Shown here one piece after another: positions 2,118 through 63,259 of a stretch of DNA of 64,000 nucleotides (its first letter is position 1; each line of letters starts with the position of its first letter). The notes beneath the pieces were generated by a model, which saw only the letters and a list, made by a program, of their open reading frames with translations, searched no databases and was not told where the DNA came from. The translations under genes were made by a program, and so were the position numbers. The stretch comes from Candidatus Moraniibacteriota bacterium (GTDB lineage: Bacteria; Patescibacteriota; Minisyncoccia; Moranbacterales; UBA1568): positions 806,791 to 870,790 of the forward strand of contig CP064974.1 of NCBI GenBank assembly GCA_016699385.1, written 5' to 3'.

Positions 2118-2317
2118 TTCAAGTCCTTCAGCATATTAGTGTATCATAATACCGTAAAAAAGAGTAAAAGTCAATAAAGAAACTTGTGGATTCTCGTGAA
2201 TACGAGATATCTACCAAATTAGAGCTCCCCATTTTTTCCAAAAAAAGAATTCCCTATTCCTTGCCAATAAGCAATCCCTCCCGTATACTCCCAACGAAAT
2301 TTCACTCTTCCTTTTCT

Positions 2318-3429
2318 ATGAACGATGATATATTTCTCCACTGCCTCGGAAAAATCCCCGGAGTCGGCGCCGAAAAACTCCGCAAGATAGCCATCGCTTT
2401 CGACACATTTGAAACAGCATGGCATGCGCCACTCGAAGAATTTCTCAGTGCCGGAATTCCACACAAACTCGCAGAAACAATTGCAAAAGAGCGAAAGCAT
2501 CTTTCCCCAGAGAAAGAATCCGAGATACTCGAAAAACACTCTATCCGTCTCATCTCCAGAGAAAGCGATGATTATCCGACACTTCTCGCAGAAATCCCAA
2601 ACCCGCCACAACTTCTCTATCTTCGAGGGAATGCACTTCTCAATAGGCACCCGTTTCTCACCGTCGTTGGCACAAGGAAACCGACCGAATACGGAGCGGG
2701 CATTGCCAGAGAATTTGCGAGCGAACTTGCGAGAAGCGGCATAACCGTTGTCTCCGGCATGGCACTCGGCATCGACAAGGCAGCACATCAAGGCGCACTC
2801 GAAGGTAATGGCGAAACCATCGCCGTACTCGGCAACGGACTCGATGACGCTTCAATTGCGCCGCGGACCCACCTCGATTTGGCACACACCATCAGTCTTC
2901 ATGGCGCACTTCTCTCGGACTATCCACCAGGAACCAGCGCCTCCGAAGGAACCTTCCCCGCAAGGAATCGTATCATGGCCGGCATGTCCCTTGGCACAGT
3001 GGTTATTGAAGCATCGGAAAAAGTGGCACGCTGATTACTGCCAATCTTGCACTCGATTTCAATCGAGAAGTTTTTGCAGTGCCAGGTTCAATCTACTCCG
3101 AAAATTCCCGCGGTCCCCACGCGCTCATCAAAAAGGGCGCCATCCTCACCGCAAGTCTTGCTGACATTCTCGATGCGCTCCCCCTCTCGCGCGAACACGA
3201 AGAACACGGAACACTCTTTGAAACAACCTCTCTCCCGCAACCAAATCTTTCCGTCGACGAAGAACGCCTTCTCAAAATCTTAGGAAGTGATACCATGCAC
3301 ATTGACGCTATCGTAAAACACTCTACACTGGAGACATCGAATGCACTTTCTGCGCTCGCCTTTCTCGAAATGAAAGGTTTAGTAAAAAATATCGGCAACA
3401 TGCATTATATAAGAACGTATCGAGTATAA
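2318..3429 (+). pseudogene. dprA: DNA-processing protein DprA/Smf, interrupted by a -1 frameshift in an A5 run (3018-3022); pseudogene or sequencing error
   Basis: ORF 2186..3034 encodes the DprA Rossmann core (VVGTRKPTEYG...VVSGMALGIDKAAHQGAL) and stops at TGA 3032-3034. Reading from 3022 in the -1 frame continues without a stop as SGTLITANLALDFNREVFAVPGSIYSENSRG...LIKKGA (ORF 3079..3429), which is the canonical DprA continuation. An A6 rather than A5 run would restore a single ~370-aa protein. Start set at MNDDIFLHCLGKIPGVG (2318); the upstream in-frame ATG at 2186 is possible. Confidence 0.7.
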
Positions 3430-7489: not shown

Positions 7490-9016
7490 TTGTCACAAGT
7501 GGGCTATACTGGAAGAGAATACACACCTATGTCACTCGTACTCGAAGATATCTTCAAAGCCTGTAAATTTCCCCCCTCAAGCGAGGGACGTCGGTTCATA
7601 ACGTCCGCATTTGCCCTCGCAGACGAAGCGCATCGCGGACAAAAGCGAAAGTCCGGAGAAAACTATATCGAGCATTCGCTTGCTGTCGGAAAAATTCTCG
7701 CAGAGATTGGCATGGAATCCCGAACCATCGCCGCCGGACTCTTGCACGATGTTCCCGAAGACACCACCGTTTCGCTCGAAACCATACGCACCCAGTTTGG
7801 AAATGAAGTCGCTATACTCGTTGATGGCGTCACCAAGCTCGGAAAAATTCGCCTCCGCGGATCACGCGAGGAATACTATCTTGAGAACCTCCGAAAAATG
7901 TTCCTCGCCATGGCAGAAGACATCCGCGTCGTCATCGTAAAGCTCGCCGATCGCCTCCACAATATGCGGACACTCGACTATCTCCCTCCCGAAAAGCAAC
8001 TCCGCATTGCACGCGAAACCATGGAAATATACGCCCCCATCGCGAACCGACTCGGCATCGGCGAAGTCAAAGGTGAACTCGAAGATCTTGCTTTCAAATA
8101 CCTTGATCCAGAAGCACACGAGAAAACACTCTCTATCGTCAAGGAATATATGCGTGAAAGCGATTCCTATCTCGATCGATGTGTCACTGGCATTCGCGAA
8201 AGCCTCACCAAAGATGGCGTTCGTATCGTACACATAGAAGGACGATCCAAACGACTCTACCGCCTCTATCAGAAGCTCCGCCGCCACGATATGGATATCA
8301 AACGTGTCTACGATTTAGTCGCAATTCGCATCATCGTTCCCGGCGTTTCCGACTGCTACGAAGCATTTGGTGCCGTCCACAAAAGCTATCGCCCCATGGT
8401 TGGGCGTATCAAAGACTACATCTCCCTCCCAAAGCCAAACAACTACCAATCTCTTCACACAACTGTCTTCGGACCCGAAGGACGTATCATTGAAATCCAA
8501 ATTCGCACACAGAAAATGCACGACGAAGCCGAACTTGGCATCGCCGCCCACTGGGCATACGCCGAGAAAGAACGGAGCACTAGCTGGCGCAAACTCTTCT
8601 TTCGCCGACACGAAACCGCGCCACCCAAAGAGCTCGCATGGGTCAAGCAACTTCAAGAATGGCAAAAAGAAATCGGTCAGGACAACCGAGAATTTCTCGA
8701 GGGTATCAAAATAGACTTTTTCAAAAACCACATCTTCGCTTTCACTCCAAATGGCGATATCATTGAACTTCCCGAAGAAGCGACGCCCGTCGATTTCGCC
8801 TATGCTATACACAGCGAAATCGGCAACAGCATGACCAGTGCCAAAGTCGACGGAAAAATAGCCCCCCTCGATCATCACATCAAAAACGGCGAGGTCGTTG
8901 AAATTATCACCGACAAAGGTCGCAAGAAACCCAATCAAGACTGGCTCCGCTTCGTCAAAACCTCCATCGCCAAAGCCCACATCCAAAAACAACTTCGCAA
9001 AGAAGGCGGGCTCTAG
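7490..9016 (+). CDS. rel: bifunctional (p)ppGpp synthetase/hydrolase, Rel/SpoT homolog (HD + synthetase + TGS, no ACT domain)
   Basis: HD hydrolase motif (HSLAVGKILAEIGMESRTIAAGLLHDVPEDT). Synthetase domain (RSKRLYRLYQKL...DLVAIRIIV...YQSLHTTV). TGS (GDIIELPEEATPVDFAYAIHSEIG). At 508 aa it is shorter than typical 700+ aa Rel proteins. An alternative start is at 7529 (MSLVLEDIF). Confidence 0.9.
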   Translation: MSQVGYTGREYTPMSLVLEDIFKACKFPPSSEGRRFITSAFALADEAHRGQKRKSGENYIEHSLAVGKILAEIGMESRTIAAGLLHDVPEDTTVSLETIRTQFGNEVAILVDGVTKLGKIRLRGSREEYYLENLRKMFLAMAEDIRVVIVKLADRLHNMRTLDYLPPEKQLRIARETMEIYAPIANRLGIGEVKGELEDLAFKYLDPEAHEKTLSIVKEYMRESDSYLDRCVTGIRESLTKDGVRIVHIEGRSKRLYRLYQKLRRHDMDIKRVYDLVAIRIIVPGVSDCYEAFGAVHKSYRPMVGRIKDYISLPKPNNYQSLHTTVFGPEGRIIEIQIRTQKMHDEAELGIAAHWAYAEKERSTSWRKLFFRRHETAPPKELAWVKQLQEWQKEIGQDNREFLEGIKIDFFKNHIFAFTPNGDIIELPEEATPVDFAYAIHSEIGNSMTSAKVDGKIAPLDHHIKNGEVVEIITDKGRKKPNQDWLRFVKTSIAKAHIQKQLRKEGGL

Positions 9017-16233: not shown

Positions 16234-16650
16234 ATGTCTATGACATTTTCCCATCCGGCTATGAATCTACAGAAAAAGAAACCGATTATCTTCACAGCGC
16301 TCTCGAAAAAATACTTCTACATGAGAATGCTGATCGTGAAATATGTTTTGGAGAATGAAAGTGTACCAATCAATCCATTCATGTCATTCGACTACTATCT
16401 TGCAGATACCGTTGAGAGAAACATAATCCGAAACGCCAACAATAATCTCGTAGCACTCGCAGACGAACTCTGGGTATTCGGATCAATAAGTAACGGCGTC
16501 ATGGCAGAAATACGACAAGTTCAGAACATGAAAAAACCCATTCGTTTTTTCACCATAGAAAACGATCAAGATATTACAGAAATTTCAAGAGACAGGCTCG
16601 TTTTCGAAGACGGTATGGAAGCATTTAAAAAAGAGCTGAAGGATCTATGA
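16234..16650 (+). CDS. small Rossmann-like protein, nucleoside 2-deoxyribosyltransferase/DNPH1-like (NDT-like; possibly DUF4406), paralog of 17975..18373
   Basis: 138 aa. Motifs PIIFTALSK...DYYLADTVERN...LVALADELWVFGSISNGVMAEIRQVQNMKKPIRFF resemble NDT-family (YxAGPxF ... aDxvvA ... DsGTxfExG ... KP). Clear paralogy with the minus-strand gene at 17975..18373. Alternative start at 16261. Confidence 0.6.
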   Translation: MSMTFSHPAMNLQKKKPIIFTALSKKYFYMRMLIVKYVLENESVPINPFMSFDYYLADTVERNIIRNANNNLVALADELWVFGSISNGVMAEIRQVQNMKKPIRFFTIENDQDITEISRDRLVFEDGMEAFKKELKDL

Positions 16651-17616
16651 TTCAAAAAGTCCTCCTTGCTTCCCCACGCGGGTTTTGCGCTGGTGTCGCG
16701 CGCGCGGTGAAGACGGTCGAGGATACGCTCGATATTTTCGGGGCACCCGTCTATATCAAGCACGAAATCGTCCACAACAAAACAGTGGTCAAGAATCTCG
16801 AAGATCGCGGTGCAATTACCGTCGATAGCGCCGAATCGATACCAGAACACTCCGTAGTCGTCTTCTCCGCACATGGTTCTCCGCCCGAAGACTACGAAAT
16901 CGCACACGCAAAAAATTGCACCGTGATTGACGCGACATGCCCCCTCGTCAACAAGGTTCATCTCGAAATGCACCGCTTCTTGAAAGATGGTTTCTCTGTC
17001 ATCTATATCGGCCACAAGGGTCACCCCCGAAGGAATCGGTGTCACTGGTGAATCGCTTCACGCGTACCACAAAGTCGTCCCCATTATCGAAAATGTCACC
17101 GACATCAAGTTGCTCAATTTTAGAAAGGACGAAAAAATAGCATACCTCACGCAGACAACACTGAGCGTCACGGAGACGGAAGATATCATTCGCGCACTCA
17201 CAGAAAAATATCCAAACATCACAGCGCCGCCCGGAAAGGATATCTGCTACGCAACCACCAATCGACAATCCGCCGTTCGCGCACTCGCAAAAGTTTCCGA
17301 TATCGTGCTCATCGTCGGCTCGAAAAATTCGTCCAACTCCACCCGCCTCGCTGAAACCGCACGCGCCGAGAATATCCCCGCCTACCTCATAGACAGTGCA
17401 AATGACATTGATTCCACATGGCTCGAAGGTATCGCAACGATTGGCGTAAGCGCCGGCGCGAGCGCTCCTGAATCAAGGGTCCAGGAAATCGCCCGGTATT
17501 TCGAAAATTTCGGTGCAATCACTGAGGAATTTACGACTATACATGAAACTACTCGATTCGCAGAACCGCTAGAACTCACAGCAATCAAGAAAAGGCATCG
17601 TTCCGAAAAATTATGA
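16647..17616 (+). pseudogene. ispH: 4-hydroxy-3-methylbut-2-enyl diphosphate reductase IspH/LytB, interrupted by a +1 frameshift in a C5 run (17044-17048); pseudogene or sequencing error
   Basis: N-terminal ORF 16647..17051 (SPRGFCAGVARAVKTVE...YIGHKGHP) and C-terminal ORF 16987..17616 (EGIGVTGESLHAYHKVV...TTNRQSAV...GSKNSSNS). Conserved IspH reads GHKGHPEGIG, so a C4 rather than C5 run would restore a single ~322-aa protein. Confidence 0.75.
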
Positions 17617-38907: not shown

Positions 38908-40098
38908 TTATTTTTTTGGACAGACTGAATTGAAAAGTCGCCGATCTTCCTCAGTGAGCACCGGCTTCTGTTCACCAACAGACGGATACATAATGGATTC
39001 GCTTTCCGTCGCATGTCCGATACCGAGCGCATGTCCCATTTCATGAGCAAGAATAAGCACAAGGTCAGCATGATTATAAAACTGAAATACATCAATACGC
39101 GCTCCGGAAGCGTCCTTTGTATAAAGTCCCGTCGTGAATTCTTCTCGCATACCGTAGACTTGATTGTAACTGTCGACGGTCAGATTGAGCGCACTTGCCA
39201 TACGATTGAGACTCCCCGCAGTCGTATTCACCTGACCGGAGAGTGCATTCAACACGCCGAAGTCTTTCTCAAGCGACGCTTTTTCGTTATTCAAACTATT
39301 TCTCTCCTCTCCAATCATGGACGATTCTTTCTTGAGCGATTTCCGTTCATCCTCAAGCTCGTCATATTCATCGGGAGGTGCACCCCCTTGGGCATTCCAC
39401 TGTGCAACCAATTGCTCATACGACTGAAAACGATCGTTATACTCCGCCACCCGATGTTCGTACTCACGAAGTTCCTGCTCATATCGAGTGACGCGTGTAT
39501 CATATGCCGATTGTTTCCGATCAAACTCTTTCCGACTCGACTCATAGTCAGCGCGCAACGCTTCATAGGCGGACTTCTGACTTTCAATATCCGATGATGC
39601 TTCTTTTAAAGAATCCGTCTGTGCCTGACGATCATCAAAAACAAGGTTAAACGGAATCGCATCCGCATCAGCACGCTCCACAAAAAGGTCACGATCAAGC
39701 CCCGTTTCCCACAACGCCTCCGCTTCATGAATCGCCGACAAAAGCTCCGTCTCCGAGAAATGAAAACTCGGATCAAGAGTACCGGCGCGATAGGATAGAG
39801 GAAATCGACACGAATCATCCAGTGCCGGAATGACACGTGACAATACTGCACGCGAAGAAGACACTGTCGGCATCTTCCCCGTTTTCATCGCAAAGACAAT
39901 TGCAAACGAAGACGTCAAAACTACCACCGAAAGAAGTACTGCCCGAATCGCACGAAGAAAAAAAGTCATACAAAACAATAATATGTTGTCCTGTCTGGTA
40001 GAAATTCCTAGAAAAGTATCAAAGAGACATGCTTCTCGTACTGTTTTTCGGAAGGAATTATTTTTTTGCGACTTTCGAAAATGAGCGCGAAAAGACAA
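38908..40098 (-). CDS. membrane-anchored matrixin-like zinc metalloprotease (metzincin) with a central coiled coil
   Basis: C-terminal HEMGHALGIGH...SIMYP (HExxHxxGxxH plus Met-turn). N-terminal TM helix. Heptad-rich region (AYEALRADYESSRKEFDRKQSAYDTRVTRYEQELREYEH). The start may be 39969. Confidence 0.7.
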   Translation of the reverse strand: MSFRAHFRKSQKNNSFRKTVREACLFDTFLGISTRQDNILLFCMTFFLRAIRAVLLSVVVLTSSFAIVFAMKTGKMPTVSSSRAVLSRVIPALDDSCRFPLSYRAGTLDPSFHFSETELLSAIHEAEALWETGLDRDLFVERADADAIPFNLVFDDRQAQTDSLKEASSDIESQKSAYEALRADYESSRKEFDRKQSAYDTRVTRYEQELREYEHRVAEYNDRFQSYEQLVAQWNAQGGAPPDEYDELEDERKSLKKESSMIGEERNSLNNEKASLEKDFGVLNALSGQVNTTAGSLNRMASALNLTVDSYNQVYGMREEFTTGLYTKDASGARIDVFQFYNHADLVLILAHEMGHALGIGHATESESIMYPSVGEQKPVLTEEDRRLFNSVCPKK

Positions 40099-40123
40099 GA
40101 AAAAAATAATTCCTTCCGAAAAA
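40044..40123. repeat. perfect 24-bp inverted repeat (TTTTTCGGAAGGAATTATTTTTTT ... AAAAAAATAATTCCTTCCGAAAAA) with a 32-nt spacer
   Basis: Arms 40044..40067 and 40100..40123 are exact reverse complements. The repeat sits in the divergent region between the metalloprotease (-) and the hydrogenase small subunit (+). Confidence 0.9.
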
Positions 40124-40170
40124 CAAACTTTCTTAACAGGCTATTAGATTCATGCTACCATACTGGTACT

Positions 40171-40689
40171 ATGAATCAAACATCCAAAAAACTCCGCATC
40201 GGCTGGTTCACATTCACCTGTTGCGAGGACAGCACCGTGATTTTTACCGAGCTCATGAACGACCATTTTGAAGTATGGCGGAAAGTGCTCGATATTCGTC
40301 ACGCACGCGTCCTCCAAACCAAAAATGTGCTCGACGAACTCGACGTCGCCTTCATCGAAGGATCAATCAATTCCGAAGAGCAAGAAGAAAAACTCAAAGA
40401 GATTCGCGCCAAATCTACAAAACTCGTCGCGATTGGCGCCTGCGCCTGTACGGGCATGCCAAGCGCTCAGCGCAATGCCTTCCCACCCGAACTCAAAGAC
40501 AAAATTAAATTTCTCCTCGACCGATTCAACCAAGGTGAAAAAGTCAAAAAGCTTGACGAAGTCGTCACGGTCGACGAACGAGTCCAAGGATGCCCTATGA
40601 TCGAAGCCTCCTTCCTCGCCGTCGTCAACAAAATGCTCGTCGAATTCGGAATTATTCCAGCAGAAGCAGAAGCAAAAAATCCCGAATAA
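40171..40689 (+). CDS. [NiFe]-hydrogenase small subunit, reduced form (proximal Fe-S cluster only)
   Basis: KLRIGWFTFTCCEDS...DVAFIEGSINSEEQEEKLKEIRAKSTKLVAIGACACTG...GCPM. Colinear with the group-3b HydD N-terminal half, but with tandem Cys (CC) instead of CxxC, and it ends shortly after GCP (172 aa). The ORF opens at 40066. Confidence 0.75.
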   Translation: MNQTSKKLRIGWFTFTCCEDSTVIFTELMNDHFEVWRKVLDIRHARVLQTKNVLDELDVAFIEGSINSEEQEEKLKEIRAKSTKLVAIGACACTGMPSAQRNAFPPELKDKIKFLLDRFNQGEKVKKLDEVVTVDERVQGCPMIEASFLAVVNKMLVEFGIIPAEAEAKNPE

Positions 40690-40759: not shown

Positions 40760-42136
40760 ATGCATCAAATATCCGAACTCAGTCAATTCAGCATCGAAGA
40801 GCTCACCAAAGTCGAAGGTGCGGCTGGCATGAACGTGTTTATCGAAAACGGCACGGTCAAAAAAGTGGAATTCGCCATCAAGGAATTCAAGCGTTTCTAT
40901 ACGCACGCCATGGAAGGAAAGCCTATTGCTGCGATTCCTCAGCTCCTCGCGCGTATCTGTGGCACATGTTCCAATGCGCATTTGGTCGCAAGTATCGAGG
41001 CTGTCGAGAAAACTCTCGGCATCGTGCCGAGCGAGCAAACCATGCTCCTGCGCACCCTCACCTATCACGGACTCATCATCCGCGATCACGCACTCCACCT
41101 CTACCTCTTCTGTCTCCCTGATTTCTTTGGCAAAGATTCTCTCCTCGGCTTTGACGATGACGATCCCATTCAACACCAACTCCTCCACGATGCCTTTGCG
41201 GTCAAAGCGGCCGGCAATCATCTCGCAATTGCTGTCGCTGGTCGAAGTGTCCATGCGCCACTCCCTATGCCAGGTGGCTTCGGAAAAATTCCGGATACAA
41301 AAGCGCTCACCGAAGTCATCATAGAACTCGAGAATATCCGTCCAGCAGTACTTCGTCTCATCAAGGTCTTTACCGATGACCCCTCATCACTCATAAGAAA
41401 AAGCAATTACGCCGCACTCAGAAATAGCAAATTTTCTTATCTCGAAGGCGACCTCTGGGATATGAAAGGCTTCGTTGTTGATGAAGCAGGCTACCGTGAT
41501 CATCTCGAACACGTCGTCCTCCCCTATTCCCAAGCCTCAGCCTATACCTTCGATGGTGAAACCTATCGTGTTGGCGCGATTGCCCGACTCAATATCAATA
41601 GCTCCGGTCTCCACCCGCGCACCAAACACGATGCAGCGGAAGCGCTCGCTCTTTTCCCGTCCGACAATATCTTCCACAACAATCTCGCCCAAGCAATCGA
41701 AATCCTCCACTCCGTCGACGAGTCAATAGACTTTTTGAAACAAAAGACTTTCGTTTCCGAGCCGGCACAGAAAATCATTCCAAAGGCCGGCATCGGTGTC
41801 GGATTGGTCGAGGCGCCACGTGGCGCGCTCTATCACAAACTCGAAGTAAACGACAAAGGCATCGTTGAGCGTGGCGAAGTCGTCGTTCCGACGGGTCAGA
41901 ATCAAATCGCGATCGAGCTCGACCTTATCCAGTTCATCAATGAGCACATGGACATGGAAGAAGCGCAGATGAAGCTCGAATGCGAAAAAATCATCCGCGC
42001 TTATGATCCCTGCATGAGCTGCGGCGCCCACTTCCTCGAACTCAAAGTAAGTAAAAATGGCAAACCGCTGAAGAAAATTCTTTCAAAACCCATAAAGAAA
42101 ACTTCAGCAAAAAAGCACAGCCATCATCACGAGTGA
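40760..42136 (+). CDS. [NiFe]-hydrogenase large subunit (group 3-like) with a C-terminal extension
   Basis: L1 motif RICGTCSNAH near the N-terminus. L2 motif DPCMSCGAH followed by a ~32-aa tail (FLELKVSKNG...HSHHHE) of the kind removed by the maturation endopeptidase. Confidence 0.9.
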   Translation: MHQISELSQFSIEELTKVEGAAGMNVFIENGTVKKVEFAIKEFKRFYTHAMEGKPIAAIPQLLARICGTCSNAHLVASIEAVEKTLGIVPSEQTMLLRTLTYHGLIIRDHALHLYLFCLPDFFGKDSLLGFDDDDPIQHQLLHDAFAVKAAGNHLAIAVAGRSVHAPLPMPGGFGKIPDTKALTEVIIELENIRPAVLRLIKVFTDDPSSLIRKSNYAALRNSKFSYLEGDLWDMKGFVVDEAGYRDHLEHVVLPYSQASAYTFDGETYRVGAIARLNINSSGLHPRTKHDAAEALALFPSDNIFHNNLAQAIEILHSVDESIDFLKQKTFVSEPAQKIIPKAGIGVGLVEAPRGALYHKLEVNDKGIVERGEVVVPTGQNQIAIELDLIQFINEHMDMEEAQMKLECEKIIRAYDPCMSCGAHFLELKVSKNGKPLKKILSKPIKKTSAKKHSHHHE

Positions 42137-42716: not shown

Positions 42717-43136
42717 CTAACAAAGAACTTCCGAAAGCTCCCGAGACACAGCAGTGAGAGCAACACTTTCGGCAATCCCTTCCGGCACGCCGAGAATTTG
42801 CGGTTCAAAGGACGGGTCGAGCTTCTTGGCGAGAAGCAAGAGTGTCGAGAGATCGTAGTCATGCGCCGTCATGCCGGCATTGCGGGATCGGGCGATGTCA
42901 TCAATCGAAAGCCACGCTACTTCGTCGAGTCCTCGAACCGTATCGAGAATAGCCCATTTTCCCCGCTTCGGCAAGTCTATTTCATTGGGGTCTTCGATTA
43001 CAAAGTGCGCATGTGGAAATCGATCCCGCAATTGTGGCACGAGAATTACCGGAAGGTTATCCAAGAGTAAATCCGGATTGCCAAACACCGATACGGAAAA
43101 CGCCGCTCTATTTTTTTCGCTCATAGGCATTGGCAA
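42717..43136 (-). CDS. hydrogenase maturation endopeptidase (HycI/HybD family, peptidase A31)
   Basis: 139 aa. VFGNPDLLLDN...DTVRGLDEVAWLSIDD...HDYDLSTLLLLAK...ILGVPEG is colinear with HybD/HycI (GxGN, D, H motifs). Confidence 0.75.
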   Translation of the reverse strand: MPMPMSEKNRAAFSVSVFGNPDLLLDNLPVILVPQLRDRFPHAHFVIEDPNEIDLPKRGKWAILDTVRGLDEVAWLSIDDIARSRNAGMTAHDYDLSTLLLLAKKLDPSFEPQILGVPEGIAESVALTAVSRELSEVLC

Positions 43137-43851
43137 AGGCGATACTTTTCTGTGTATACGCGCGAAGTCGCGTCACTGTTTGTTCCGAAAGCGTCTCACA
43201 TGGCACACCCCAATGAATGGATATCCATGCGCCGGGCGCAAGAAGATCGATATCGATATCGGCAGAGAGATCTCGCACAAGCCGACGAGAAACCGGCAAA
43301 CCGAGTGAGAAAACGCCATGATCATCTCGGCTAAGTGGCTCAATAAGCACATCGATAAACGGTCCCGAAACAGTGAGCACTTTCCCCCAACTCACGATAC
43401 ACTCGGCAACCGCTGTCCAATCATCATCGTGAAGCAACTCATGTTGCGTCTCGCGCCACACATTGAGCACATGAAATGAATGGTGCGGGAAGCCGCCTCG
43501 AACCACCTTCTGCCCGATAGTATCAAAACGCTCCCGCCCCGTTTTCTTCTTCACATCGAGCGCATCAAGAAGCCCCAGATACTTCTTTGGCGAAAACGTA
43601 TCAAGCAAACGATTCCCAATCCAGTATGCCTCAACAACTCCATCATCAAACGGGTCTCGAATACCATTCCCTTCCGCAATGTGCAAGAGGTACGGATAGA
43701 GATTTTGGAATCGCTCAAGGATAGCCGAAAGCCGTGGATCACTCTCACCCGCATCCAGATATTCTTTCATTGTCTTATTTGCATCGGGTCCGCAGTAATG
43801 CAACCGATTCGGCCCAAACGCATACCGACTACATCGAAACACTCCATCCAT
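43108..43851 (-). CDS. conserved hypothetical protein (overlaps and is co-oriented with the hydrogenase protease gene)
   Basis: 247-aa ORF. Its stop overlaps the protease start by 29 nt. No family recognised. Confidence 0.5.
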   Translation of the reverse strand: MDGVFRCSRYAFGPNRLHYCGPDANKTMKEYLDAGESDPRLSAILERFQNLYPYLLHIAEGNGIRDPFDDGVVEAYWIGNRLLDTFSPKKYLGLLDALDVKKKTGRERFDTIGQKVVRGGFPHHSFHVLNVWRETQHELLHDDDWTAVAECIVSWGKVLTVSGPFIDVLIEPLSRDDHGVFSLGLPVSRRLVRDLSADIDIDLLAPGAWISIHWGVPCETLSEQTVTRLRAYTQKSIAFANAYERKK

Positions 43852-62205: not shown

Positions 62206-63132
62206 CTACACTTTCACTGGCACCATTTCTCGTCTCGATTTCAAGAAAAAATAGCTAACAACAACAAAGGTGATAACCGGCGCAACATAGGGTGGTACAT
62301 GCGCGCCAAAGGCTTCGAGGAGCATAATCGTGCCAAGTGAGAGCACGGAATACATCGCACCATTCTTGAGATAGGCGTAGCGTTTGATGCGTTCTATATT
62401 GCCCATTGTAAACTGTCGGACAGCCAGCGCGCCCAAGCTATTCCCAATGAGAATGAGTGGAACAGAAAAAGTAAAAGCAAAAGCTCCCAAGACGCCGTCG
62501 ATCGAGAATGTCATATCGATTGCCTCGAGATAGAGGAGCTTGCTAATGTCCGAGAGTCCTCCCTTTGAGCTCAACATCCGTTGTTCGCTTTGCTCCGCCT
62601 GTTGCTTAAATCCATGCGTAATAAAGAATACGGTTGAACCAACGACAGCACCGAAAGCAACGATCGGATCTTGCCGAAGTGCAAACCACACAATAGTCGC
62701 GAGCAGTATCGATACGGTTGCATAGAACCACACTCCCTGCGAATAGAAAAATTTCTCTCCAATAAGCCCAAACTGTTTCTCCTCCATAAAGAGCCAATGG
62801 AAGAAAAGGAAGACCAAGAAAACACCGCCACCCATGAGGAGTATCGGTGCCGCAGACTCGATAGCTGTCTGAACAACTTCATCACCGGAGAATGTTGAAA
62901 GAAAAGCGTCTACCGGTCCAAGCCCTGGTGCAGCTGCCCAAATAATCGCCCAAGGCAAAAGCCCGCGAACAACAAACACGGCAAAAAACAATCCCCATGT
63001 CAAAAACCAGCGCTTCGACTTCTCTCCCATCGTTCCCAAAACCTGGGCATTGATAATGGCATTGTCGATACTCGACACCACCTCAAACAAAAAGAGTCCG
63101 AGTACAATGAGAATAAGTGAGGTAATATCCAT
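62206..63132 (-). CDS. TerC/DUF475-like integral membrane protein
   Basis: 308 aa, 7-9 TM helices, conserved SIDNAI motif near the N-terminus. Confidence 0.5.
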   Translation of the reverse strand: MDITSLILIVLGLFLFEVVSSIDNAIINAQVLGTMGEKSKRWFLTWGLFFAVFVVRGLLPWAIIWAAAPGLGPVDAFLSTFSGDEVVQTAIESAAPILLMGGGVFLVFLFFHWLFMEEKQFGLIGEKFFYSQGVWFYATVSILLATIVWFALRQDPIVAFGAVVGSTVFFITHGFKQQAEQSEQRMLSSKGGLSDISKLLYLEAIDMTFSIDGVLGAFAFTFSVPLILIGNSLGALAVRQFTMGNIERIKRYAYLKNGAMYSVLSLGTIMLLEAFGAHVPPYVAPVITFVVVSYFFLKSRREMVPVKV

Positions 63133-63259
63133 ACGCGCAGTATATCAGAATCAAATGAAAAGCTCTAAAAGCCTACTAAGAAAGTCTGTTTTTCTGAAAA
63201 ACAGTGCGAGAAGTACGCCTTTTTGGTACATTTTTAACAGGCTCTAAGAAAAACTCGTC

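Follow-up and report, generated by a model that had tools for sequence, protein, structure and literature searches.

What does a perfect inverted repeat do between two divergent genes of a bacterium of Candidatus Moraniibacteriota, a CPR lineage: does it control the hydrogenase gene at its side, or is it repeat DNA that happens to lie there?

The repeat and its genomic setting

A repeat search of the window (the whole stretch of DNA analysed, 64 kb) identified two arms that are complementary at 26/26 positions (40042-40067 and 40100-40125), lie 32 nt apart and span 84 bp overall. They sit in the 201-bp spacer between an M10 peptidase gene and a NiFe-hydrogenase small-subunit gene, which diverge:

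38908..39969, minus strand: M10 (matrixin-type) metallopeptidase, 353 aa, with an N-terminal hydrophobic segment
40042..40067, plus strand: left arm, TGTTTTTCGGAAGGAATTATTTTTTT
40068..40099, plus strand: spacer or loop of 32 nt, GCGACTTTCGAAAATGAGCGCGAAAAGACAAG
40100..40125, plus strand: right arm, the exact reverse complement of the left arm
40153..40161, plus strand: extended -10-like box, TGCTACCAT, 9 nt upstream of the hydrogenase ATG; a putative promoter element
40171..40689, plus strand: NiFe-hydrogenase small subunit (Oxidored_q6)
40760..42136, after the small subunit: NiFe-hydrogenase large subunit

The sequence-only reading of this DNA had reported a perfect repeat of 24 bp with a 32-nt spacer, which is real but understated, each arm being two bases longer. 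It had also suggested that the spacer overlaps the start of a minus-strand ORF at 40098; the true peptidase start, 73 nt short of the repeat, is the ATG at 39969, as called on a Logan contig and matched by orthologues of 352-354 aa, and the repeat is therefore entirely intergenic. In-frame hydrogenase starts further upstream (40066 and 40087) were rejected because every orthologue starts at the MNQ/MNK position.

The inverted repeat is real and statistically exceptional. Among inverted repeats of 16 nt or longer within 300 nt, it is the only perfect one in the 64-kb window, the next best being 76-88% complementary. The arm 26-mer occurs at only two sites in the window, the arms themselves, even when 3 mismatches are allowed, and 0/100 dinucleotide shuffles contained two arm matches. 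The strong hairpin anticipated on both strands was borne out by folding predictions, which gave -37.4 kcal/mol (z -6.3) for RNA of the plus strand and -36.7 kcal/mol (z -5.9) for RNA of the minus strand; a DNA hairpin is predicted at -26.9 kcal/mol (z -6.2). Searches of Rfam 15 around both this repeat and the related copy described below (gathering thresholds and E <= 10) returned nothing at any family's gathering threshold. The sub-threshold matches, eukaryotic microRNA-precursor hairpins among them, reached at most 36 bits against microRNA-family thresholds of at least 83, and are regarded as spurious.

Several familiar identities were considered and set aside. For an intrinsic terminator, no terminator-like site was found in 39800-40300, the stem is A+T-rich, the loop is 32 nt long and the flanking genes diverge. 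For an attC-like site, the arms are perfect, with neither extrahelical bases nor R'/R'' boxes, and no integrase lies nearby. A small ORF of 26 codons from an ATG at 40029 (MLLVLFFGRNYFFATFENEREKTRKK) was taken as chance, since the related copy has no start codon at that place.

On the hydrogenase side, ATGCTACCATA is invariant in seven lineages (the window, L003, L007/L008, L051, L052, L053-L055 and L049/L050), and wherever a contig covers the site the -10-like box beside this ATG is kept, except in the CP064994 lineage. A -35-like TTAACA lies at 40133-40138, 17 nt from the -10-like box. The implied hydrogenase 5' UTR is near zero, which would place the repeat at about -43 to -126. On the peptidase side, a -10-like hexamer, TATTAT, can be read in the sequence 8 nt upstream of the ATG.

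Orthologous spacers and related elements

The repeat is missing from 7/7 of the orthologous loci recovered, whether as peptidase-hydrogenase or as hydrogenase-upstream spacers. Four of these loci have spacers of 71-114 bp (L003, 114; L007/L008, 71; L051, 94; L052, 105) and L053-L055 one of 183 bp; L004-L006 have 226-228 bp upstream of the hydrogenase gene and no peptidase gene, and in L049/L050 the 43 bp upstream of the hydrogenase gene are covered. The L051 spacer contains the right flank and the outer right arm (CGAGAAACAG...) but no left arm; the right arm's outer 8 nt (40118-40125, GAAAAACA) recur there as GAGAAACA. The L003 spacer shows weak similarity to the left flank. In L053-L055 the same spacer holds a different long inverted repeat, with 29-nt arms that are 90% complementary and a 67-nt spacer. 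It begins 10 nt from the peptidase ATG and must therefore be transcribed or carry the promoter. The peptidase-hydrogenase spacer is thus occupied by different palindromes in different Moraniibacteriota lineages.

Judged by these comparisons, the repeat at 40042 is not a conserved regulatory site for the hydrogenase. At the orthologous hydrogenase promoters only the -10-like ATGCTACCATA next to the ATG is retained, and the proposal of a binding site for a dimeric regulator of the hydrogenase finds no support in any orthologous spacer recovered. A hairpin or attenuator acting on the hydrogenase is also unlikely, because the repeat lies upstream of the inferred promoter; a hairpin role would be possible only if the peptidase had a long 5' UTR.

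Sequence related to the repeat was found about 23 kb away, upstream of a DUF475 gene (copy B; the repeat at 40042 and its flanks are referred to as copy A). The features that define the shared unit are:

39998..40006, plus strand: possible decayed target-site duplicate, TAGAAATTC, suggested by comparison with copy B and by the ...AAA(A/T)TCATGC junctions of relatives
40009..40041, plus strand: left flank, TAGAAAAGTATCAAAGAGACATGCTTCTCGTAC, homologous to the left part of copy B (nhmmer E 1e-10)
40126..40149, plus strand: right flank, which includes the -35-like TTAACA and shares homology with copy B (right part) and the L051 spacer
40144..40151, plus strand: possible decayed target-site duplicate, TTAGATTC, putative partner of 39998-40006
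63169..63240, minus strand: copy B, a 72-bp unit
63162..63168 and 63241..63247, minus strand: TTAGAGC direct repeats flanking copy B, an exact 7-bp duplication

At 63163-63236 on the minus strand the flanks reappear together with the outermost 8 nt of both arms, at about 80% identity (60/75 aligned positions, with the inner 68 bp removed). The local alignment of copies A and B scores 79, against 15.7 +/- 2.4 for shuffles, and the two halves of the match have nhmmer E-values of 1e-10 and 1e-6. Of the left arm, copy B shares the outer 8 nt (40042-40049); the inner 18 nt belong to the repeat at 40042 only. Where copy A has its 26-bp arms and spacer, copy B has only a 9-bp stem (CTGTTTTTC A GAAAAACAG, 63186-63204). 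The perfect 26-nt inverted repeat is central, not terminal, within the shared unit. Neither the rest of the window nor the related loci contain a significant match to the 32-nt spacer. The ends of the unit show weak inverted similarity (AGCCTGTTAA/TTAGTAGGCT, 8/10 in copy B; TTAACAGGCT in copy A), and CTTCTCGYACTGTTTTTC, GAAAAACARACTTTCTTA and TGTTTTTCCAGAAAAATTG are conserved across the family.

Copy B is a 79-bp insertion relative to L056, L057 and L058 and is absent from all three; the empty site in relatives, L056 included, contains one TTAGAGC. In L056 the gene adjoining copy B is 94% identical at the DNA level, with 77% identity at 4-fold sites. No exact direct repeat flanks the 84-bp repeat itself (TAC versus AAC); the imperfect pair TAGAAATTC/TTAGATTC would bound a 137-bp unit, 40007-40143. 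Because the right flank and the outer 8 nt of the right arm are present in L051, part of the element may be ancestral local sequence, of which copy B could be a copy.

A further relative of the repeat occurs upstream of thrS in L058, L059 and L061, with 26-nt arms that are 96% complementary and an 84-nt spacer. It lies within a stretch of about 192 bp that the window lacks at its own thrS locus, and in L058 it can be read between a -10-like box and the ATG of thrS. The L058 and window arms are identical at 21/27 positions in register, a score that just one other 27-mer attains over about 380,000 positions of window and related loci, and the L058 flank GAAAAACAGACCTTTTAG resembles the right flank of copies A and B. 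The arm similarity falls largely in runs of T and A, which counts against the match. The L058 arm contains a small palindrome of its own (TTTTTCCAGAAAAA); an imperfect palindrome within the unit is found in the L058 arm and in copy B, and not in the window arm (TTTTTCGGAAGGAA). Window and L058 arms differ by mirrored changes at 6 positions; since such mirroring is found between any two palindromes, it was given no weight as separate proof of selection. The instances upstream of the hydrogenase, DUF475 and thrS genes all point to the downstream start codon. An IS3-type reading, with TG...CA ends and a 3-bp duplication, was rejected, the flanking triplets matching at just 2/3 positions in each of the three elements.

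Exact searches with arm 20-mers found no second inverted-repeat copy in 185,579 GTDB species genomes, JGI metagenomes or IMG/VR. They gave 22 matches in GTDB, 18 in the JGI metagenomes and 0 in IMG/VR, the source genome not being among the hits; these were single arms in unrelated taxa with no inverted partner, and are therefore attributed to chance. Scans of IMG/VR with the flanks conserved between copies A and B likewise gave chance matches alone. Run on the window plus about 125 kb from related loci, blastn-short and nhmmer recovered copy B and the L058 element and nothing further, and a profile of the five known units found no additional unit in about 190 kb of window and related loci. The search for further copies thus yielded two related loci in 64 kb, the repeat at 40042 and copy B. 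Among about 50 window ORFs, a Pfam search detected no transposase, RAYT, Y1 transposase or integrase, and the window likewise yielded no parent IS whose ends match.

Origin of the repeat

In our judgement the repeat is probably a young, lineage-specific insertion of a palindromic repeat element of MITE, REPIN or Correia-like type, with any regulatory effect incidental. This reading is favoured by the presence or absence of the elements among relatives (the repeat at 40042 missing from the seven orthologous loci, copy B from three relatives and the L058 element from the window), together with the 7-bp repeat around copy B and the L058 homologue. The 84-bp repeat would be the central stem-loop of a small non-coding element that was inserted or remodelled between the divergent genes and presumably mobilised in trans, its enzyme being encoded outside the window. 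Each lineage has undergone about 13% neutral change since the window and its nearest relative diverged, and at that rate the probability that all 52 nt escaped change is about 0.001; the perfect arms would therefore be either young or kept identical, the latter through a constraint of copying or pairing. The central 68 bp may have been gained by the long-arm form at 40042 or lost from the short-stem form of copy B. The element would have no dedicated role in hydrogenase control and side effects at most: it abuts the hydrogenase -35 region, and it would form a strong hairpin if the peptidase mRNA started beyond the repeat. Several observations count against a mobile element: there are two loci in 64 kb and no enzyme family found in the window; the direct repeats around copy A are imperfect or lacking; part of the element may be ancestral, given the L051 spacer; the arm match to L058 falls largely in T and A runs; and the homology between copies A and B surrounds the palindrome rather than ending it, which is atypical for a classical MITE.

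An artefact of assembly or sequencing, for instance a fold-back chimera, is highly improbable. Chimeric reads can yield perfect palindromes, and the window and the Logan contig may share reads; however, the Logan assembly of run SRR11674038 is identical over 221 bp spanning the repeat, and this exact agreement of two assemblies makes an assembler artefact unlikely. In addition, the repeat lies mid-contig with syntenic, intact genes on either side, a unique 32-nt spacer between the arms is not the usual fold-back signature, and an independently assembled related species (several ENA samples) has the homologous repeat with 26-nt arms. A palindrome that arose de novo, with no mobility, has somewhat more to commend it, although we still regard it as unlikely. 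A short hairpin (CTGTTTTTC..GAAAAACAG) of the kind seen in copy B, one half of which L051 also has, would here have been lengthened to 26 bp by template switching or inverted duplication, with copy B a one-off templated copy. The right flank and outer right arm in L051, where the left arm is missing, the weak similarity of L003 to the left flank, and perfect arms that fit a single very recent event are all consistent with local growth, as are the absence of a transposase from the window and of the inner arms from every collection searched. The 16-20% divergence between copies A and B is also compatible with copying after the L056 split. Such growth sits poorly, however, with a relative's repeat that has arms of equal length, 21/27 identical in register, at another locus, with the exact 7-bp duplication around copy B, as expected after transposition, and with the unrelated long inverted repeat in the L053-L055 spacer, which suggests invasion.

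Two other explanations give the repeat a function. It might act at the RNA level if the peptidase mRNA started to its right, for example from a candidate weak minus-strand promoter (TTGATT-16-TAGCAT) that overlaps the conserved box. The 5'-UTR hairpin would then attenuate or stabilise the mRNA or be a target of RNase III, a use acquired after the insertion; we consider this rather improbable. The minus-strand hairpin is predicted to be strong, the L053-L055 and L058 repeats lie close to the peptidase ATG and between the thrS -10-like box and ATG, respectively, and transcribed Correia elements are RNase III substrates (PMC2649163). The candidate promoter scores 8/12, however, below the threshold of the promoter scan, whereas the TATTAT hexamer near the peptidase ATG would set the start downstream of the repeat, and a hairpin that relatives have not kept cannot be a required part of peptidase control. 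Very unlikely, and largely refuted, is a locus-specific DNA site, through which a regulator (dimeric or looping) or a cruciform driven by supercoiling would control the hydrogenase or the peptidase. Its position upstream of the inferred hydrogenase start and at about -71 to -154 from the peptidase start would suit such a site. Under the twin-domain model, negative supercoiling accumulates between divergent genes and would be expected here, where the predicted DNA hairpin could form; a 32-nt loop, however, disfavours cruciform extrusion. Moreover, the site is absent from all orthologous spacers whereas the core promoter box is invariant, and 26-bp arms with centres 58 bp apart are unlike known operator geometry. 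The outer arms and flanks recur upstream of DUF475 and a homologue lies upstream of thrS, arguing against a link to the hydrogenase. The three options first offered for the repeat are, taken together, partly supported: a miniature mobile or recombination site is the one now favoured, although two related loci in 64 kb and no further copy in the public collections fall short of the many genome-wide copies that the sequence-only reading associated with a MITE.

Likeness to known palindromic elements

The Correia elements (CREE) of Neisseria are small non-coding elements of about 70-157 bp with 26-bp inverted repeats, which exist as long and short (internally deleted) variants and are present or absent between close strains (PMC2649163). 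They often lie 5' of genes, their ends can supply promoter hexamers, and if transcribed they form hairpins that are RNase III substrates (PMC2649163). The element described here resembles them in its 26-nt arms, its 84-bp repeat within a unit of roughly 137 bp, its short variant (copy B) and its place immediately upstream of promoters, with TTAACA at the right end 17 nt from the -10-like box. It differs in having no sequence relationship to CREE, in belonging to a different phylum, and in that neither an IHF site nor RNase III processing is known for it; CREE occur in tens to hundreds of copies with a TA duplication, compared with two loci in 64 kb and a 7-bp duplication at copy B.

REPINs consist of two inverted units of about 26 nt around a less conserved spacer, are predicted to form hairpins and are extragenic (PMC3116915). 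Two inverted units and a spacer predicted to form a hairpin were found in both the window and L058. As in REPINs, the arms vary between family members by mirrored changes, and copy B, the short form, may be a decayed singlet remnant; the small palindrome in each L058 arm (TTTTTCCAGAAAAA), lost from the window arm (GGAAGGAA), recalls REP units. REPINs, however, occur in tens to hundreds of copies along with a RAYT gene, whereas here the copy number looks low and no RAYT was seen in the window, and they are not known to make target duplications, of which copy B has one. Classical MITEs derived from DDE-type IS are likewise short and non-coding, with inverted repeats, target-site duplication (as at copy B) and insertion polymorphism, which we found among the related genomes. 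Their inverted repeats are terminal, whereas here copies A and B share sequence outside the palindrome; the 84-bp repeat also lacks a flanking duplication, and no parent IS sharing its ends came to light in the window.

The kind of element is thus ordinary, while the family appears undescribed; a literature search for miniature inverted-repeat transposable elements in the candidate phyla radiation returned an unrelated match alone. A bolder reading, which we hold to be rather improbable, is of an undescribed hairpin family of CPR/Patescibacteria that prefers the upstream promoter edge of leaderless genes, its members being mobile regulatory modules of Correia-like or REPIN-like type with co-evolving arms and an unknown enzyme. 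On the favoured reading of a palindromic repeat-element insertion, the locus is a caution: in a reduced CPR genome, a perfect palindrome that catches the eye next to metabolic genes can be selfish or neutral repeat DNA; being such DNA and not a hydrogenase switch, the repeat does not merit annotation as an operator. Patescibacteria have hardly any documented palindromic repeat elements of small size. Should the family turn out to be multi-copy, even genomes of roughly 1 Mb would sustain such elements, which would then provide strain-level markers and a natural experiment on promoter-proximal insertions.

A perfect inverted repeat between the peptidase and hydrogenase genes

The inverted repeat between the peptidase and hydrogenase genes (the 40042 repeat, or copy A) had been described from sequence alone as a perfect 24-bp repeat with a 32-nt spacer, a description that holds and can be slightly extended, to 26-nt arms that are 100% complementary. 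In a scan for arms of at least 16 nt lying within 300 nt of each other it was the sole perfect inverted repeat in the window, the remaining ones being 76-88% complementary. Furthermore, the 26-mer arm has only two sites in the 64-kb window at up to three mismatches, and two matches were not reached in any of 100 dinucleotide shuffles. As had been proposed, a long hairpin is predicted for either RNA strand (-37.4 and -36.7 kcal/mol, z about -6), and likewise for DNA (-26.9 kcal/mol, z -6.2). It is highly improbable that the repeat is an artefact, since the Logan assembly of SRA run SRR11674038 agrees in its genes and matches base for base over the 221-bp spacer region; its contig stops ~100 bp past the small-subunit gene.

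Features of the peptidase-hydrogenase region (window coordinates)
39969, minus strand: ATG of the M10 (matrixin-type) metallopeptidase gene; 353 aa, hydrophobic N-terminus
39970-40170: peptidase-hydrogenase spacer, 201 bp
40007-40143: putative 137-bp A unit, the repeat with its flanks
40029-40109: 26-codon ORF (MLLVLFFGRNYFFATFENEREKTRKK) that begins in the left flank, spans the left arm and spacer and ends early in the right arm
40042-40067 and 40100-40125: arms of the 40042 repeat, with a 32-nt spacer
40760-42136, plus strand: NiFe hydrogenase large subunit (NiFeSe_Hases), after the small subunit (Oxidored_q6)
43108-43851: DUF6390 gene, downstream of the hydrogenase genes and kept in relatives

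The closest homologues of the hydrogenase small subunit come from Candidatus Moraniibacteriota genomes of the CPR/Patescibacteria lineage. Only the small- and large-subunit genes adjoin each other, with no other hydrogenase subunit or maturation gene beside them in the window. The suggestion that the repeat's spacer overlaps the start of a long minus-strand ORF at 40098 is not borne out: this ORF, which reaches a TTG there, is ruled out as the peptidase gene by the 353-aa call in the Logan contig and by orthologues of 352-354 aa, and because the peptidase starts at 39969 the repeat is wholly intergenic. The 26-codon ORF is probably due to chance, the related copy B (below) having no start codon at the equivalent place.

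Directly 5' of the hydrogenase ATG, a box (ATGCTACCATA) that is invariant in seven lineages (the window and six relatives) can be read as an extended -10 (TGcTACCAT), 9 nt before the ATG, and a promoter scan paired it with TTAACA at 40133-40138. The DUF475 gene (63132) has the same arrangement in clearer form (TGATATACT, 6 nt, ATG), and relatives have TGATATAAT, 6-7 nt and ATG. Because these boxes sit so near the start codons, we infer very short or absent leaders for both genes, and on this reading the repeat would span about -43 to -126 relative to the hydrogenase start and so precede the promoter. Extended -10-like boxes of the form TGnTAnnnT stand 6-9 nt 5' of start codons at 40153-40173 and 63130-63147 and upstream of DUF475 in two related contigs (L057 and L058), and no Shine-Dalgarno motif was found at these start codons; the pattern suggests that mRNAs of this Moraniibacteriota lineage are leaderless or nearly so.

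Elsewhere in the window, DprA is split over two ORFs 44 nt apart (2186-3034 and 3079-3429), one with the DNA_processg_A domain and the downstream one with the DprA winged-helix domain, which may be a frameshift or a genuine split. A LytB/IspH-like ORF (16987-17616), which aligns to just positions 117-265 of the 267-position profile and whose start is overlapped by an ORF on the other strand (16566-17045), may represent a truncated or frameshifted gene. All 2-kb bins from 1 to 64000 have a negative GC skew (-0.08 to -0.24) and the minus strand carries most genes, placing the whole window on one replichore.

Orthologous spacers in related lineages

Neither the 40042 repeat nor anything alignable to its arms or spacer was found in the orthologous regions of seven other lineages, whose small subunits share 81-91% protein identity.

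Peptidase-hydrogenase spacers in related contigs
L003 (CP064989): 114 bp
L007/L008: 71 bp
L051: 94 bp
L052: 105 bp
L053-L055: 183 bp
L049/L050: 43 bp upstream of the hydrogenase gene covered
L004-L006 (CP064994 lineage): peptidase gene absent upstream of the hydrogenase genes

The L053-L055 spacer holds an unrelated REPIN-like inverted repeat (1328-1452; 29-nt arms, CGTCATCCCCGCGAAGGCGGGGAACCAGA, 90% complementary, 67-nt spacer) that begins 10 nt from the peptidase ATG and bears a G+C-rich palindrome, CCCCGCGAAGGCGGGG, in each arm. The upstream region of L004/L006 also folds into long imperfect hairpins, and the spacer is therefore repeatedly occupied by different palindromes. The A unit may in part be an old resident of this locus, because its right flank and outer right arm are recognisable in the L051 spacer (CGAGAAACAGACCTTCTCGTTAACAGACC...). 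In the CP064994 lineage, two opposite-strand ORFs of 274 aa and 263-298 aa, neither with a Pfam match, lie between the small- and large-subunit genes (L004 4837-6586; L005 3079-4827; L006 1322-3070).

Related elements upstream of DUF475 and thrS

A sensitive search with the repeat and its flanks matched 63164-63213 on the minus strand (copy B, CTGTTAAAAATGTACCAAAAAGGCGTACTTCTCGCAC-TGTTTTTC-A-GAAAAACA-GACTTTCTTAGTAGGCTT). Both flanks and the outer 8 nt of each arm are common to the two copies, the single A corresponding to 68 bp in the hydrogenase copy (the inner 18 nt of each arm and the 32-nt spacer). With these 68 bp removed, 60 of 75 aligned positions are identical (about 80%); the local alignment scores 79 (shuffles, 15.7 +/- 2.4), and in a search of the window with a two-sequence profile no other locus appeared. 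Copy B, which carries a 9-bp-stem hairpin (CTGTTTTTC A GAAAAACAG), sits between a penicillin-binding-protein gene and DUF475, just upstream of the DUF475 -35 region. This intergenic spacer is 127 bp in the window and 47-53 bp in L056, L057 and L058 (98, 96 and 93% protein identity in DUF475). Because TTAGAGC, present only once in L056, stands on either side of the extra 79 bp as an exact direct repeat of 7 bp (63162-63168 and 63241-63247), the region bears the signature of an insertion with target-site duplication.

At four-fold degenerate sites of DUF475 the window and L056 are 77% identical, about 13% change per lineage, and the probability of 52 arm nucleotides staying unchanged since that split under neutrality is about 0.001. 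The flanks common to A and B are 16-20% diverged, which means that the perfect arms either formed long after the surrounding element or are held identical by re-copying or pairing selection.

Alignment of 53.4-64 kb of the window with the syntenic L058 contig revealed a ~192-bp stretch upstream of thrS that is missing from the window. Within this stretch the related species has an inverted repeat, the L058 element (8186-8395; also in L059 and L061), with 26-nt arms, 96% complementary, and an 84-nt spacer that is G+C-rich with its own hairpin. In register, 21 of 27 positions of its arm, TGTTTTTCCAGAAAAATTGTTTTTTTG, agree with the window arm, TGTTTTTCGGAAGGAATTATTTTTTTG, a score equalled by one unrelated 27-mer among ~380,000 positions of the window and related loci, and its flank on the gene side, GAAAAACAGACCTTTTAG, is similar to the A/B right flank GAAAAACARACTTTCTTA. 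The six arm differences occur on both arms, with pairing kept in each element; this would indicate arm co-evolution only if the elements are truly homologous, and is no proof by itself, since mirrored differences arise between any two palindromes. The shared flank orients all three elements toward the next gene's start codon, 29-55 nt off. Read toward thrS, the L058 element follows a TATAAT box and precedes the thrS start codon. Because the hexamer CTCATA (on the coding strand of thrS, TATGAG) stands on both sides of the insertion and includes the thrS ATG, the element may have parted thrS, leaderless until then, from its promoter.

Scanned as exact 20-mers, the arm gave 22 matches in 185,579 GTDB species genomes, 18 in JGI metagenome contigs and none in IMG/VR, all single arms in unrelated taxa with no inverted partner and thus chance matches. 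The search for further copies that had been proposed thus yielded no second inverted repeat in these collections, from which the source genome is absent, since the scans did not retrieve the window's own locus. IMG/VR scans with the A/B-conserved flanks returned chance matches only, Rfam gave nothing above threshold, and among the ~50 window ORFs there was no match to a transposase, RAYT or integrase family.

Nature of the element

We consider it rather more probable than its converse that the 40042 repeat forms the stem-loop at the centre of a small palindromic repeat element, which would be non-coding, lineage-specific and of recent formation or renewal, and would work like miniature mobile elements of other bacteria. 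A miniature mobile site was among the options of the sequence-only reading, and is favoured by the copy B insertion with its TTAGAGC duplication, the L058 homologue and the absence from relatives. The regulatory interpretations offered beside it are not supported: a site for a dimeric regulator of the hydrogenase loses its footing because the repeat is not conserved in related genomes, a point on which that reading had let the matter turn, and a dedicated DNA regulatory site or cruciform is improbable. A palindrome grown de novo from a short ancestral hairpin is unlikely, if conceivable. It is quite unlikely that the repeat has been co-opted as a hairpin within a long 5' UTR of the peptidase mRNA, a role that would be compatible with a palindromic repeat element.

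Correia elements of Neisseria have 26-bp inverted repeats, exist in long and internally deleted forms, show strain-specific insertions 5' of genes, supply promoters from their ends, and fold into hairpins sensitive to RNase III (PMC2649163); REPINs consist of two inverted REP units and a spacer that form a hairpin, singlets being decayed remnants (PMC3116915). We do not claim membership in either family because the 40042 element is seen at low copy number with no mobilising gene seen in the window, its 84-bp repeat lacks a flanking duplication of its own, and it has no sequence relationship to them. The palindromic repeat element is ordinary in kind, and its family appears to be undescribed.
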